Of a stretch of DNA of 6,151 nt, positions 1 to 4,517 are shown one piece after another. Both the position numbers and the translations under genes were made by a program. Below the pieces are notes generated by a model that worked only from the letters and a program-made list of their open reading frames with translations, had not been told where the DNA came from and ran no database searches. The DNA is taken from contig CAYNZZ010000025.1 in NCBI GenBank assembly GCA_964401865.1, positions 1-6,151 on the forward strand, in the 5' to 3' direction. This DNA comes from an uncultured Erysipelotrichaceae bacterium (lineage in GTDB: Bacteria; Bacillota_I; Bacilli_A; Erysipelotrichales; Erysipelotrichaceae). Position 1 is the first letter of the stretch. Each line of letters starts with the position of its first letter.

Positions 1-1
1 A

Positions 2-169
2 TATGTTCAAAGTGTTGTGCATTTATATGATGATAATGGAGGATTTAATTCTTATGAGGTCGATGAAACATATGATGCCTTAAATAACGCTTTAGCTAAA
101 GAGAACGATATAAAAGTGTGTGGCGATTTGTCTTTTCATTGGCTTTTAAATACCACCATTAATTCTTAA
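2..169 (+). CDS. 3' end of an unidentified ORF (5'-truncated by the window edge), stop TAA at 167..169
   Basis: Hand translation of the frame starting at position 2 gives YVQSVVHLYDDNGGFNSYEVDETYDALNNALAKENDIKVCGDLSFHWLLNTTINS*, with no earlier stop. The other two + frames hit stops within about 80 nt. I recognise no motif. It shares its frame with the next ORF. Confidence 0.4.
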   Translation, partial: YVQSVVHLYDDNGGFNSYEVDETYDALNNALAKENDIKVCGDLSFHWLLNTTINS

Positions 170-340
170 GATAGTTTTTTAGGCAGGTTAGGGTTATCTA
201 AAACATTTGATATCTTAGATGATGACAATCAGGTTTTCAATAATCTTTCGCATATTGAAAATGGACATTTTGTCAAAAAATGTACCAGAAAAGGACGTCT
301 TATCTCTGTTGCAACAAAACCGATAAGCAGCGATAAGATT

Positions 341-577
341 TTGCTTAGTAGGTATTCAGCAGTTATTAAGAAAGGCGAATCATTTGACATTCCTATTTAT
401 TCCTTACCTTCTGGTTATGAAGAGAAAGATTTAGCATATGAAATAGCTAATCGTGAAATTTGCACTCTGGATGGCAAAACCATTAACGCTATCAAGGCAG
501 GAGTTACAGTAATTAAAATTAAAACGAATGATAATAAATTTGAAGCTAGTTTTAATTTATTAGTTAGTGATGGATAA
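341..577 (+). CDS. Bacterial Ig-like (Big_2-type) domain protein, or the C-terminal part of a disrupted one. The open frame actually extends back to 170.
   Basis: The track ORF starts at TTG 341. The C-terminal pattern ICTLDGKTINAIKAGVTVIKIKTNDNKFEASFNLLV fits the Big_2 signature (v..V...G.vtAvkaGtatItat..dgk.a...v.V). The domain appears to begin upstream of the TTG, around PISSDKILLSRY. There is no ATG, GTG or TTG in frame between 170 and 340, and no Shine-Dalgarno before 341, so the start is uncertain. Confidence 0.5.
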   Translation: MLSRYSAVIKKGESFDIPIYSLPSGYEEKDLAYEIANREICTLDGKTINAIKAGVTVIKIKTNDNKFEASFNLLVSDG

Positions 578-1166
578 CATGTTTATTGTTTATGTTGATA
601 ATATAAAAATTGATTATTTCAATTTGGATGACGTTAAAAAGACAATAGATTATGAAGGGTTGTATATTTATGCAGAAAATGGTAAATGGTTTCTAAATGC
701 AGAAAAATGTACTATAGATGGTGATAAAAAAGATAAGGTTGAACTTATGCATAGACATTATGTAATAAAAAGCGAGGATATTTTCTATGATCGTTACCTA
801 TATGTGTATGGCGATAAGAATGGCTTTGATAATTACTCGATAACTGAAAATAAAGATTTTTTAATTTCGAATAATGAAAAATCTAATATCGTTATAAAAA
901 ACAACTTATTAAACCAAAAATACTTATTTTTTCATCGCAATGTTCTTCAAACGAACTTAAAACCCATTTTTTTGAATGGGAAGGTTTATAAGCAGGAAAT
1001 GCTTAATGATTTTGACTGTATTGAATGGTATGGAATTAAGTTCTACTATCATAAAAATTTTATTATCATTAATAATTTTGGTGTTACCAATATAAAAGAA
1101 ATAACACCACAATTTGATGATTGCATATATCATCAAAAAAGAAATATAAATAGTTTTATTGGCGGT
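567..1166 (+). other. EssC N-terminal cytoplasmic region with tandem FHA-like modules (aa 1 to about 200)
   Basis: [16 protein letters not shown]...YLYVYGDKN, then [17 protein letters not shown]...[28 protein letters not shown]. The second stretch fits the pattern 'itIG..ndi.i ... vNG ... l..gD.i...g' of EssC/YukBA FHA-type N-domains. Boundaries are approximate. Confidence 0.55.
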
Positions 1167-4100
1167 CATAAAAGAAATGTTGAATTTATAGATTTTAAAG
1201 TACCGGATGAGAAAGAAATAAAGAAACGCACTTTCCCAAGCCTTATTGAACAGATTGGACCTGGATTTACTATGTCTTTAGCTATGTGCGGCATAGCATT
1301 TATTAATGTTTATCTAAGTATTGAAAGAGGTTCAAGTGCATTGGAGGTTGTTCCTATCATATTGTTACCGGTGGTAATGATGATTTCCACGCTTGTTTGG
1401 CCACTCGTTATTCGTCTATATGCATCAATCAAATATAATAAAGATGTTGATAAGCAAAGAAACGATTATTTAAAAGCGATCGATGAAGCTATGAACGAGC
1501 ATAGATTGTATATAAATGACGAAATTAAAAAGGTCAGTAGTTATTTCTTTGATTTTAATTACTATAATCGATTAATTGATAAAAATAGTCTATTTTTTAA
1601 AAATAAGAAAGATGATGACTTCTTAACCTTATCAATAGGATACAAGAAATATTATTTTTCTACATCGAAAATCGAAAGGAATTTCATTGAATATCCATTT
1701 TTTATAGATATGTATATCCATTCATCGATGATTATTCGTGAAAATATCAAAGATAATTATTATTTCATTAGTAAGATTATTTTAGAATTAACTTCAATTA
1801 ATGACTATCGTGATTTATTACTTGTGTTATTTAAGAAACCTAAAGATTTTTACTATCTTGATTTCATTCCTCATTTGTTTCATTCTAATAGTCGTTATTT
1901 GTTGTGTGATGAGCAAGAATTGGGATTATTAGAAAAAATAAGAGATAAGAAGATTGTATTGATTTCTTTTTCACACATTAATAAGCAGTTTGAAAGCGAT
2001 AATATTTACACAATCTATTATCAAAACAATAAATATGTTGATGAAAAAGGTGTTGATACAATAGTGAATGTTAATAACGGCAATGGAACTGTTCATATCG
2101 ACTCAAAAGAGTGTGCGTTTAAGTATTATATTGAAGCATTTGACTTTAAAAAGGCATTTTACGAAGAAAATAAATATTTAGAATTAGATTTTGATGATAA
2201 TATTTCTTATTCATTTAAAGACACATATCAATTGCCGATAGATAAAATAGATATTATGTTGAACCATCTAACAAATAGGCAAAGATTAAAAGCTAATTTT
2301 GCGTGTTTTAATGATGAATTTCATTTTGATTTGCATGAAAAAGGTATAGGCCCTCATGGTTTAATTGGTGGCACAACTGGTTCTGGGAAAAGTGAATTAA
2401 TTATCAGTCTTTTGTTTTCGCTGTGTATGAATTATAGTCCTGATTATTTAAATATCGTAGTAATTGATTATAAGGGTGGAGGTATTGTTCAAAGCTTGAG
2501 CTATAAAAACGAGAAATTACCGCATATTATTGCTGCTATTTCAAATATAGATGACGATTTTCAAAGATTGATTGTCGGTATTAAAAAGGAATGTAAAAAT
2601 CGACAGATAAAATTTAATGAGTTATCGATTAGATCATCGAGTTCTATTATGAATATTGACGATTACAATATGTGCGATTTAAAAGGTGAAATAATGCCTA
2701 GATTGTTGATTGTGATAGATGAATTCGCTGAATTAAAAATGAACCACTATGAAGAGATGAAAGAACTTATATCTTTATCTAGAATTGGTCGAAGTCTAGG
2801 TCTTCATTTAATATTAGCTACTCAAAAACCAGGTTCTTCAATTGATGAAGAAATCTGGTCCAATAGTCGTTTTAAAATAGCACTGAAAGTTCAAGACGAT
2901 AAAGATTCTAGAGAATTGATACACAGCGATTCGGCTGCGTATATTAAAAAAGCTGGTGATTTCTATTTATTATCAGATAAGAGGGTACATTTTGGGCATT
3001 GTGTATATTCTAGATCACCACTCAACGATTTAAATCATCAAGTTTCATTGGTTGATGAACGGTTGAACATTATTAGAACTAGCACCGAAGAAGTGAAAAC
3101 AATTAGTGAATTAGAATACGGTGTAAAAACTATTGTAACGATGTATCGTGAAAGATGCTTTGATAATTATCTTTTCCCTAAAAAGCCTGATTCTTCTTTT
3201 GGCTATGATTTAATTCGAAAATATAAATATTTCAAAGATGATTCAGATGTTGTGATGGGTGAGATTGATGATATAGAAAATTTACATCAGAATATTTTGA
3301 TATATAGCATAAAAGAAGGTCACGCTCTTATTGTGTCTAAAAGAACTGAAGAAATTCTCACTGTTTTGGATGGTTTAGCTAATTTTAAAGATCGAATTAT
3401 ATACATCGGTACCAAAATAATAAGCCATCCATGCATCAGTGATTGTGTAAGATACTGGGATGATGATTTAAAGTTCTTCTTTAAGATTATTAATAGTAAA
3501 ACAGAAAAACAAAATTTAGTGATTATTTTCGAGGATTTGTCAACTTTTTTAAATTATGAAGAAATTAACAAAACTTATTTTTACCGCTTGTTGTCAATTG
3601 CTCAATTGTTAAACATTACGATTATAGCTTTGACTAGGAATATCAATAACTTACCTTATCGAGCGTTGCTTGGTTTTGAAAATATTTTTGCGATAAATAT
3701 TAAAGATAAAAGTGAACTTACGATGCTATTTAAAACCTCTTTAGATATCAAAGATGGATATTGTTTTATGAAGAAACTGTATAATTATATACCGGTTAAA
3801 ATCACGAACAAGGACTATCCTGCATGTAAAAAAGAGTCATATATTATCACCATACCTAAAATCATTAAACAAGAATTTAGATTTGATTCGTTTTTAATAG
3901 GTTACATTATCGATACAAGAGAAAAAATATATCATAGTAAAACAAAACATTTATGTATTATATCTTACAATGAAGAATTATTAGATAAATATAAAAACAT
4001 ATTTATAACTGAAAAGAACATTGAATTTATTAAGTATAATCGCAATTATGAATTTGATAGAGATAAAGAATTGCTTTGGGTAGGCGATGGTGTTTTAAGG

Positions 4101-4202
4101 CAACATCTTTTTCACTATTTTCAAAAAGAAGATATCAAAAATGGTGAAGGAATCTATTTTGCTAATGAGATATGTAAGAAAATAAGAGTAGTAGATGAGT
4201 AG
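567..4202 (+). CDS. essC: Type VII secretion system (T7SSb) FtsK/SpoIIIE-family ATPase, EssC/YukBA homologue, 1211 aa
   Basis: The architecture reads FHA-like N-terminus, two TM helices, a juxtamembrane [18 protein letters not shown], a degenerate D0 containing LDFIPHLF, then an FtsK/SpoIIIE module. That module carries [21 protein letters not shown] (Walker A), [19 protein letters not shown] (Walker B), [17 protein letters not shown] and [19 protein letters not shown]. These closely track the S. aureus EssC D1 motifs as I recall them ([67 protein letters not shown]). The C-terminal [17 protein letters not shown] resembles the EssC C-terminus. The start is ambiguous among GTG 567, ATG 570 and ATG 579, with no strong SD. 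Stop is TAG 4200..4202. Confidence 0.92.
   Translation: [1211 protein letters not shown]
1263..1412 (+). other. EssC transmembrane hairpin (TM1 about aa 233-252, TM2 about aa 261-282)
   Basis: Two hydrophobic stretches, [20 protein letters not shown] and [22 protein letters not shown], are separated by the short loop ERGSSALE. The basic segment [10 protein letters not shown] follows. Confidence 0.8.
2289..3056 (+). other. EssC D1 ATPase domain, the only catalytically intact P-loop module
   Basis: Walker A [9 protein letters not shown] at 2367..2393 (aa 601-609). Walker B LLIVIDEF at 2703..2726 (D718/E719). Sensor motif [11 protein letters not shown] at 2799..2831. The Arg-containing [12 protein letters not shown] follows. 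Domain edges are approximate. Confidence 0.88.
3114..3827 (+). other. EssC D2-like domain with degenerate nucleotide-binding motifs
   Basis: The Walker A position reads [18 protein letters not shown] (3318..3353), with no GxxGxGK[ST]. The Walker B position reads [12 protein letters not shown] (3513..3548). The ATQ-equivalent strand reads [14 protein letters not shown]. The order and spacing of hydrophobic strands match an FtsK-like fold. Boundaries are approximate. Confidence 0.6.
3828..4199 (+). other. Shortened D3-like C-terminal module of EssC (about 120 aa)
   Basis: It starts like an EssC domain ([27 protein letters not shown]...[10 protein letters not shown]) and ends like one (LLWVGDG...[19 protein letters not shown]). 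The intervening core is too short for a full RecA-like fold and has no P-loop. Confidence 0.45.
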
Positions 4203-4452
4203 AATTCTTTTAAAATTAAGTTTTATTCCTATGAATAAAACTATCGAAGTTTTTTTCAATAGTTCAATTTCCTTTAAAGATAATATGAAACTTCTTAAAG
4301 ACATAATCGATTTTCAATGTTTTGAAGAATATGTTGTTGTTGACTTTTATAACCATAAAGTTATTAATACTGAAATAGAATTGAACAGGCTCTCATTAAA
4401 TAAACCGACACATTTTTACATTTATTTCATTCATGGTAAAATAGTTCTATGA
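4195..4452 (+). CDS. Small 85-aa protein, probable YukD/EsaB-like ubiquitin-fold (beta-grasp) T7SS accessory protein
   Basis: ATG 4195 overlaps the essC stop by 8 nt (ATGAGTAG). The size fits YukD/EsaB (about 80 aa). The predicted pattern is beta-beta-alpha-beta...beta: ILLKLSFI, TIEVFF, helix ISFKDNMKLLKDIIDF, VVVDFY, THFYIYF. It aligns by eye with B. subtilis YukD (IDITIDL..NGSVFDLRLSDYHPVKKVIDIA) and with the S. aureus EsaB C-terminal DRLIDYQIADGDILKLL, both recalled from memory. It has no WxG motif and is not helical, so it is not a WXG100 substrate. Stop is TGA 4450..4452. Confidence 0.5.
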   Translation: MSRILLKLSFIPMNKTIEVFFNSSISFKDNMKLLKDIIDFQCFEEYVVVDFYNHKVINTEIELNRLSLNKPTHFYIYFIHGKIVL

Positions 4453-4517
4453 AATGTAAGATTTTATTTTTTGTTGTAGCTATTTCGATGCTATTTACAG
4501 GCATAGTTATATCAGCT
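4449..4517 (+). other. Sec-type signal peptide of the hydrolase
   Basis: MKCKILFFVVAISMLFTGIVISA|EEDV has a basic n-region, a hydrophobic core and an I-S-A cleavage-type motif. There is no lipobox Cys after the h-region. Confidence 0.75.

Follow-up and report, generated by a model that had tools for sequence, protein, structure and literature searches.

Which domains of EssC and EccC are mechanically necessary is still debated, and to our knowledge every domain truncation engineered in laboratory constructs stops secretion. EccC of the T7SSa branch has ATP-binding D2 and D3 domains, and its D3 accommodates the signal of EsxB in a site bounded by helix alpha2 and strand beta4 (PMC6954902). In T7SSb the canonical D2 of EssC/YukB binds ATP, and the D3 of staphylococcal and streptococcal EssC is devoid of a P-loop (PMC4925161, PMC13355648). 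Only the Walker motifs of D1 are needed in B. subtilis (PMC4925161) and S. intermedius (PMC13355648), and nucleotide binding by D2 is dispensable in both. In S. aureus it is needed for complex assembly (PMC9436818); mutations in the D2 Walker motifs abolish secretion and assembly and any truncation of D3 abolishes secretion (PMC9436818; PMC13355648), so the loss of D2 or D3 elements is not neutral in canonical systems. The D2 Walker A of S. aureus EssC uses Gly-Arg (G1019/R1020; PMC9436818) and not Gly-Lys, as had been quoted in the initial annotation of the DNA analysed here. T7SSb structures compared in this work were B. subtilis YukB (9QKS), D2-D3 of G. thermodenitrificans EssC (5FV0/4LYA) and S. 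aureus D3 (6TV1); the T7SSa structures are T. curvata EccC (4NH0/4N1A) and D3 of M. tuberculosis EccCb1 (6J19).

In this work we have analysed a stretch of 6,151 nucleotides (the window) from an uncultured Erysipelotrichaceae bacterium, which encodes a short-form EssC-like FtsK/SpoIIIE ATPase of 1211 aa (567..4202, + strand). We consider it likely, with a probability of about 0.7, that this protein is a functional, lineage-specific and miniaturised EssC, predicted to act as the membrane ATPase of a secretion cassette that is type VII-like but reduced. When its whole clade was compared by hhalign with canonical EssC of ~1520 aa, the alignment (probability 100%, E 3e-134) extended from aa 5 to 1211 of the short protein and from 1 to 1509 of the 1517 canonical residues, and the C-terminal part alone was matched with a probability of 99.1% (E 8.7e-19). 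The short EssC is thus shown, at the level of profile alignment, to be collinear with canonical EssC from the N- to the C-terminus, with about 300 aa (270-310) lost through many internal deletions. The order of N-terminal region, two transmembrane helices, D0, D1, D2 and D3 is that of T7SSb EssC/YukB, with which it also shares the D1 motifs and the adjacent WXG100 genes.

The ORF begins with a GTG at 567, overlapping the stop codon of the upstream lipoprotein gene, and would specify 1210 aa if the ATG at 570 were used; it ends with TAG and is clean under translation table 11. All motif strings quoted in the initial annotation for a 1211-aa protein were located in it. The low-GC genome, in which an alternative genetic code might be suspected, is the sole hint that a frameshift, a mis-assembly or a wrong code could have made the C-terminus short; an alternative code is unneeded since the ORF stops at TAG, and it was ruled out. 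An essC ORF of equal length was found in independent assemblies from several samples (L001, L084-L087), a 41%-identical homologue has 1217 aa, and no continuation of D3 in another frame was detected. The stop codon is preceded by a conserved C-terminal hairpin that aligns with the C-terminus of canonical EssC, and the next ORF is a separate conserved gene. The short C-terminus is regarded as real because the same length recurs across independent assemblies and the clade, and by these comparisons it is neither a frameshift nor an assembly error, as had been claimed at the outset; the artefact explanation, which retains hardly any probability, is refuted by the agreement between assemblies and among 39 clade members. 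The ORF is intact in every allele compared, and a comparison of the window allele with that of L001 gave 12 synonymous against only 5 non-synonymous changes, an excess of synonymous changes indicative of purifying selection on essC.

An exhaustive search recovered ~67 database cluster representatives (clusters at 50% identity) sharing the C-terminus of the short EssC, nearly all of the full-length ones being 1116-1234 aa long. The 39 full-length members within this range have the same C-terminal end and each carries one positionally equivalent P-loop (39/39), which answers in the affirmative the earlier question whether the short form defines a clade. It occurs in uncultured Bacillota of low GC content from gut and rumen, most of which carry the label Erysipelotrichaceae. 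With the C-terminal 404 aa as query, a word-index homologue search gave no match, and at least 80 related loci, most of them with canonical EssC and the window's own species not among them, were listed from an alignment that included D1. The protein scores 282.8 bits with the EssC equivalog TIGR03928 (cut-off 778.4), and 175.5 and 64.6 bits with the EccC models TIGR03924 and TIGR03925 (cut-offs 509 and 347). No name for the short EssC proteins was found in public sources, and neither short forms of EssC nor a T7SS in Erysipelotrichaceae were described in the literature searched.

The N-terminal cytoplasmic region (aa 1-200; 567..1166, +) aligns collinearly with the part of canonical EssC that carries the tandem FHA domains, the hhalign alignment starting at aa 5, and contains an FHA-like C-terminal motif at aa 136-169. 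Pfam gave no FHA match in the short EssC, and neither did PDB sequences when searched with a clade profile covering the first 225 aa; the region may be of the FHA type. Between it and D0, as in EssC, are two transmembrane segments, read from the sequence only as hydrophobic stretches (aa 234-252 and 261-282; 1266..1412, +). The D0/DUF-like region (aa ~300-560; 1464..2246, +) is ~50 aa shorter than in the canonical relatives, with deletions of 20, 8, 13 and 8 aa relative to the canonical homologue P0003 in hhalign.

D1 (2301..3002, +) was delimited by Pfam, PDB sequence match, motifs and a full RecA-like fold in the AF2 model. It is intact, as had been stated, and is the sole domain in which ATPase motifs are retained: Walker A GTTGSGKS at aa 602-609 (nt 2370-2393), Walker B VIDEFAEL at aa 716-723 (nt 2712-2735) and the ATQKP motif at aa 751-755 (nt 2817-2831), with motif residues invariant across 47 clade sequences. 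The relaxed Walker A pattern [AG]x4G[KR][STE] has a single match in the entire protein, at aa 602, and Pfam recognizes one FtsK_SpoIIIE domain (aa 585-756). D1 alone was matched when PDB sequences were searched with the short EssC, the best hit being D1 of YukB (9QKS, E 7e-53). It also resembles FtsK and TcpA, as would be expected if the protein were not a secretion ATPase and acted as a DNA translocase of the FtsK/TraB/TcpA type or a conjugation coupling protein. This is very unlikely given the full-length collinear homology to EssC, including the N-terminal region, two transmembrane helices and D0; Ftsk_gamma was not found by Pfam, NF007615 scored 40.7 against a cut-off of 1566, and in every locus examined two WXG100-family genes precede essC, the flanks being occupied by housekeeping genes with no mobile element.

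A linker (aa 813-893; 3003..3245, +), defined by the AF2 model and hhalign, connects D1 with a D2-like pseudo-ATPase domain (aa 894-1080; 3246..3806, +) whose alpha/beta core is complete but compacted, with secondary-structure elements in the order of D1 and deletions of 22 and 15 aa relative to canonical EssC (hhalign). Pattern search found in D2 no glycine-rich loop and no Lys/Arg followed by Ser/Thr, and column frequencies confirm that the P-loop is lost clade-wide as well as here; the clade consensus at its former position (aa 918-929, nt 3318-3353) is hhxSxRxxE. The Walker B position reads VIIFED, the previously reported IIFEDL lying at aa 986-991 (nt 3522-3539), and its acidic pair E989-D990 is occupied among the 47 clade sequences by E in 34 and D in 6, and then by D in 41. 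The conservation of this pair, and of Ser924, Arg926 and Glu929 where the P-loop used to be, together with the complete fold in the AF2 model and the NN found in place of the acidic pair in the nearest canonical relatives, might suggest that D2 binds nucleotide, or mimics the bound state, through non-canonical residues, so that more than one regulatory ATP site would exist. We regard such a cryptic site as unlikely: the glycine-rich loop and the Lys/Arg-Ser/Thr pair are missing, the helix after strand beta1 is only ~7 residues long in the model, and the conserved Arg could equally well occupy an empty phosphate site, salt-bridged to the acidic pair.

The last domain, mini-D3 (aa 1105-1211, ~107 aa; 3879..4199, +), was identified by AF2, Foldseek and hhalign. 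According to the AF2 model (pLDDT 93.8) it is built from two hairpins, one at the entry and one at the C-terminus, together with three parallel strands and a single helix. As judged from profile alignment and DSSP strings, it lacks helices alpha2-alpha3 and strand beta4 as well as the Walker-B strand beta5 with the helices after it, and hhalign places deletions of 40, 39 and 12 aa relative to canonical EssC. The claim that the entry strand and the extreme C-terminus are kept is borne out by retained strings of 14 letters at aa 1109-1122, HLCIISY at aa 1128-1134 and 17 letters at aa 1193-1209. Its best Foldseek matches in PDB are the D3 domains of EssC and EccC (5fv0, 4lya, 6tv1), with weak E values (6e-3 to 3e-2); TMq of 0.58 but TMt of 0.33 against EssC D3 agree with the AF2 models and the deletions that D3 is about half length, and as modelled it is cut to about half of the RecA-like core. 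For aa 560-1211 the AF2 model (pLDDT 91.4, pTM 0.81) contains all of D1, a D2 that is compact yet complete, and the half-RecA D3, and its best PDB match is D1-D3 of T7SSa EccC from T. curvata (4nh0, E 6e-34, TMq 0.69). Two complete FtsK-like domains are not present after D1: D2 has a complete fold without a P-loop, D3 has ~half of the core, and the structure prediction suggested as a check revealed no pair of complete RecA-like folds with nucleotide-binding residues. The ATP-binding D2 and D3 that characterize EccC are missing, no P-loop following D1.

The short form differs from T7SSb EssC in being ~270-310 aa smaller, in the loss of the D2 P-loop, in the acidic ED pair at the D2 Walker-B position and in a D3 shortened by ~90-110 aa, with the loss of beta4, alpha2 and the Walker-B strand. 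The nearest canonical homologues of ~1520 aa (metagenomes, P0003-P0019), with 37-38% identity in D1, already have a catalytically degenerate D2, with IINNY as Walker B and a Walker A that is either GxxGSGKE or lost, and no P-loop in D3; unlike the short EssC they keep full-length D0, D2 and D3, and none was recovered by the C-terminal query. A single competent ATPase had been proposed, and one P-loop, in D1, was indeed verified, but this is no functional novelty: a single active ATPase is less radical since D1 motifs suffice in B. subtilis and S. intermedius and the nearest relatives are already degenerate. The proposal of altered substrate recognition gains support, being made more likely by the nature of the deleted D3 parts, beta4, alpha2 and beta5, as the EsxB signal of EccC sits between alpha2 and beta4 (PMC6954902).

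The short essC gene is part of a cassette with the conserved order WXG100, WXG-like, lipoprotein, short EssC and ~80-aa ORF, kept in three different chromosomal contexts. The 99-aa WXG100 protein matches PF06013 (1.4e-10), so that a substrate gene adjoins essC as in T7SSb loci, and the 97-aa WXG-like protein scores 110 bits with NF035934 (cut-off 100). Such an adjacent pair of differing WXG100-like genes, one of the two products having a C-terminal YxxxE motif, resembles EsxA/EsxB of T7SSa; unlike in T7SSa, neither EccB, EccD, EccE nor MycP was detected in the flanks. Pfam families of EssA, EssB/YukC and EsaA/YueB were not found within ~8-10 kb in the flanks of L001, L002, L004 and L005, a search that leaves room for these genes elsewhere in the genome. 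Their place is taken, unlike in T7SSb, by the lipoprotein of ~640 aa, which is without a family assignment (no PDB or NCBIfam match for the 640-aa protein). Its gene, which also precedes short essC in L002 and L004-L008 as a conserved element whose products have lipobox-like N-termini, is represented in the window by its 3' end (1..577, +; frame-2 translation; 640 aa in L001), interrupted by TAA at 167-169 where L001 has CAA; in L084 it is called as 504 aa and 78 aa.

This premature TAA could signal decay, and together with the absence of EssA, EssB and EsaA from the flanks and an EssC equivalog score far under the cut-off (283 against 778 bits) it might make the locus an eroding, non-functional T7SSb remnant in which the shortening of D2 and D3 represents steps of pseudogenisation. 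Such a relic is improbable, as ~67 clusters (50% identity) have retained the compact length and motif pattern, no allele has a broken ORF and synonymous changes prevail, the AF2 models are very confident, the D1 catalytic residues are invariant, and the cassette order is conserved across distant genomes.

If the protein is a functional miniaturised EssC, D1 alone would power export, D2 would contribute to the hexameric stack a structural layer devoid of nucleotide, and what is left of D3 would be just those parts that pack on D2 and close the stack. Along with helix alpha2 and strand beta4, the EccC-type signal pocket between them would be deleted, as profile alignment and DSSP strings suggest, and therefore the two WXG100-like substrates would need another docking site, either D2 or a new surface of mini-D3. 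A small, fixed set of substrates and the apparent absence of EssA, EssB and EsaA would fit a motor that has lost both a variable specificity module and the complex assembly that depends on nucleotide in D2. More tentatively, and with some doubt on our side, the cassette (an EsxA/EsxB-like pair, lipoprotein, mini-EssC and ~80-aa protein) may be a distinct minimal T7SS subtype that works without EssA, EssB and EsaA, with a single nucleotide site and docking outside the classical D3 pocket; were this true, it would contain the smallest naturally occurring EssC with the capacity for protein export. A conserved natural lineage of this kind offers an evolutionary deletion map of dispensable EssC parts, namely the D2 P-loop, ~half of D3 including the elements of the T7SSa signal pocket, and apparently the EssA/EssB/EsaA partners, and the short EssC would be a compact target for structural work and WXG100 docking tests.

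The ORF of 85 aa that follows (4195..4452, +), its ATG overlapping the essC stop, had been called yukD-like, which is at most a tentative assignment: no match was obtained in Pfam (including PF08817), NCBIfam or PDB, and when 20 YukD homologues taken from canonical loci (five were checked, and Pfam confirmed them) were compared with it by hhalign, the probability was a non-significant 2.7%. A small ORF of 77-85 aa occupies the same position in L002, L004 and L005. The cassette is followed by the 5' part of a gene for a secreted protein of 916 aa that has a signal peptide and contains a glucosaminidase domain (4449..6151, +). The gene runs off the window, and its position behind the cassette is conserved in L002 and L004.

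The low-GC window (about 25-33%) contains a single long ORF on the + strand, short essC (567..4202), which encodes a product of 1211 aa when read from GTG (567) and of 1210 aa from ATG at 570, the start adopted in public gene calls. Either start overlaps the stop codon of the upstream gene (TAA 575-577) and the TAG stop of essC is overlapped by the ATG of an 85-aa ORF; judged from the sequence, these overlaps at both ends suggest translational coupling along a cassette of two WXG100-like genes, a lipoprotein gene, short essC and an ORF of ~80 aa. Pfam recognizes one FtsK_SpoIIIE domain (aa 585-756), the top NCBIfam model is EssC TIGR03928 (283 bits, below its cut-off of 778), and a sequence search of the PDB matched D1 alone, best to YukB of B. 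subtilis (9QKS, E 7e-53) and EccC of T. curvata. No names for short-EssC proteins were found in public sources.

Profile-profile comparison of the short-EssC clade with fifteen EssC homologues of ~1520 aa demonstrated that the two are collinear from end to end (probability 100%, E 3e-134, aa 5-1211 versus 1-1509 of 1517), and the post-D1 part aligned on its own (probability 99.1%, E 8.7e-19). The ~300 residues missing from short EssC are distributed as internal deletions; in the profile alignment those of at least 8 aa amount to about 50 aa in total in D0, 22 and 15 aa in D2, and 40, 39 and 12 aa in D3. Because of this full-length collinearity and the WXG100 neighbours, it is unlikely that short EssC is a DNA translocase.

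The initial annotation had described an EssC with one competent ATPase, a D2 deprived of its P-loop and a D3 of about half length; the strings it quoted were all found in the protein where it had placed them. The relaxed Walker A pattern occurs only once, as GTTGSGKS at aa 602, which upholds the first two claims: the 10-residue stretch aligned with the canonical D2 P-loop lacks the pattern, and the D2 Walker-B position reads VIIFED. Across the clade the consensus is hhxSxRxxE at the P-loop position (S 30/47, R 31/47, E 31/47) and hhh[E/D]D at the Walker-B position (E in 34 and D in 6 of 47 sequences, followed by D in 41/47). The conserved arginine and acidic pair suggest, as a hypothesis, that the D2 site may be self-filled and nucleotide-free; that D2 retains a cryptic nucleotide site is improbable. 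In the nearest canonical homologues from metagenomes (P0003-P0019, ~1520 aa) most D2 Walker A motifs read GxxGSGKE or are already lost or degenerate, IINNY stands at the D2 Walker B and a P-loop is missing from D3, hence the degeneracy of D2 and D3 is older than the short form.

AlphaFold2 was run on aa 560-1211 with a 47-sequence alignment of the clade (pLDDT 91.4, pTM 0.81). In the model D1 has all RecA-like elements, D2 (aa ~894-1080) repeats the strand and helix order of D1 with shortened helices, and the last domain (aa ~1105-1211) contains only a strand-helix-strand-strand segment between an entry beta-hairpin and a C-terminal hairpin. Compared with PDB structures, the whole model came closest to the EccC D1-D3 crystal structure 4nh0 (E 6e-34, TMq 0.69); EssC D2-D3 4lya ranked next. 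As had been claimed, ~120 aa are left after D2, ~107 of them forming the last domain, mini-D3. Folded alone (pLDDT 93.8) it matched best EssC D2-D3 (5fv0, 4lya), S. aureus EssC D3 6tv1 (TMq 0.58, TMt 0.33) and EccC, with weak E-values of 6e-3 to 3e-2; the model, this ranking and the profile alignment concur that mini-D3 covers about half of a D3.

In EccC D3 a parallel sheet beta7-beta3-beta6-beta5-beta4 is extended by N- and C-terminal hairpins (nomenclature of Wang et al., PMC6954902). According to the profile alignment and DSSP strings, the end of alpha1, beta4, alpha2-alpha3, beta5 (the Walker-B strand) and the helices after it have been deleted, and a strand that was kept, IEFIK, lines up with beta6, the sensor strand; the remnant is therefore a contiguous half-sheet beta7-beta3-beta6 with both hairpins. 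The C-terminal signal of EsxB enters a pocket between alpha2 and beta4 in EccCb1 and in EccC of T. curvata (PMC6954902); by the same alignment and strings, mini-D3 is predicted to lack these elements.

Logan assemblies made independently from several samples (L001, L084-L087) contain the same short essC ORF, and the window allele is present on 19 contigs. The window differs from L084 by one base and from the L001 allele at 34 sites, of which 12 synonymous and 5 non-synonymous fall in essC. A 1217-aa homologue, 41% identical, lies in a matching gene neighbourhood. With nothing but the 404 aa that follow D1 as query, an exhaustive HMMER search gave 67 cluster representatives, the full-length ones nearly all of 1116-1234 aa and none a canonical EssC of ~1500 aa, so the short form constitutes a clade, as the initial annotation had thought worth checking. 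All 39 full-length members examined have exactly one P-loop, positionally equivalent. Since the ORF is kept in independent assemblies and clade-wide, an artefactual origin of the short C-terminus is refuted. Among the matches listed, full-length relatives are labelled mostly as Erysipelotrichaceae MAGs and one as Oscillospiraceae; partial matches came from Solobacterium and Bulleidia MAGs.

The cassette begins with genes for a WXG100 protein (99 aa) and a WXG-like protein (97 aa; NF035934 'pore-forming ESAT-6 family', 110 bits versus a cut-off of 100), two different genes that in L001 (7494-8102) precede the remainder, upstream of the part covered by the window. In the 97-aa protein W-x-S/G-D replaces a clean WxG, and the C-terminus has a conserved YDSLE, a YxxxE motif like that of T7SSa EsxB signals. 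The third gene encodes a lipoprotein of ~630-710 aa of no known family, whose 3' end lies upstream of essC in the window. Of the five genes the first four are conserved throughout L001, L002 and L004-L008, and the ~80-aa ORF after short essC was confirmed in L001, L002, L004 and L005. In the window the latter (4195-4452, 85 aa, ATGAGTAG) overlaps the essC stop; ORFs of 77-85 aa occupy the same position in L002, L004 and L005. It matched no family and its similarity to YukD was not significant. Next comes the beginning of a gene for a large secreted protein (4449-6151), which carries a signal peptide as well as glucosaminidase and Big_3-like domains; such glucosaminidases (867-917 aa) are often found after the cassette, as in the window, L002 and L004, and may be cell-wall-remodelling partners or simply neighbours.

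The cassette occupies three different chromosomal contexts amid housekeeping genes, and no EssA, EssB/YukC or EsaA family members were found within 8-10 kb of it. A TAA stop (167-169) cuts the conserved 640-aa lipoprotein gene in the window; the codon is CAA in L001, and the gene is called likewise split in L084 (504 aa + 78 aa). This premature stop is the main argument for a decaying cassette, but in view of the clade-wide conservation decay is rather improbable.

In canonical EssC, a pair of FHA domains and two TM helices accompany four ATPase-like domains, named D0 to D3 (PMC10765036). In staphylococci D3 lacks ATP motifs, and in B. subtilis the only Walker motifs needed are those of D1 (PMC4925161). 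The same holds for S. intermedius, in which D2 Walker mutants secrete normally and removal of any domain abolishes secretion (PMC13355648). Reliance on a single ATPase is thus the norm. The initial interpretation is essentially right, but short EssC is functionally less radical than it implied. It has been shown that D2 Walker mutations in S. aureus break the EssC-EsaA-EssA-EssB complex (PMC9436818). What is new here is that evolution has removed the D2 P-loop completely and half of D3 as well, and that the partners which need D2 for their assembly in S. aureus are apparently absent; no description of such a short form was found in the literature.

We propose that D1 would be the sole motor of short EssC, D2 a structural ring without nucleotide, and mini-D3 a cap keeping the sheet extension that packs on D2. 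The two WXG100-like proteins probably form a heterodimer, the YxxxE-bearing partner acting as putative signal carrier, and the docking site of the pair would be D2 or a new surface of mini-D3.

Related Erysipelotrichaceae EssC-like proteins are encoded in cassettes of the same make-up in L006 (6198-10046; 1282 aa) and L008 (5006-8473); these contain a single P-loop and end in a domain that is different but likewise small (~135 aa). Other EssC-like proteins (P0020-P0022, 1117-1123 aa) end at the D1-D2 linker and may be split EccCa/EccCb-like forms.
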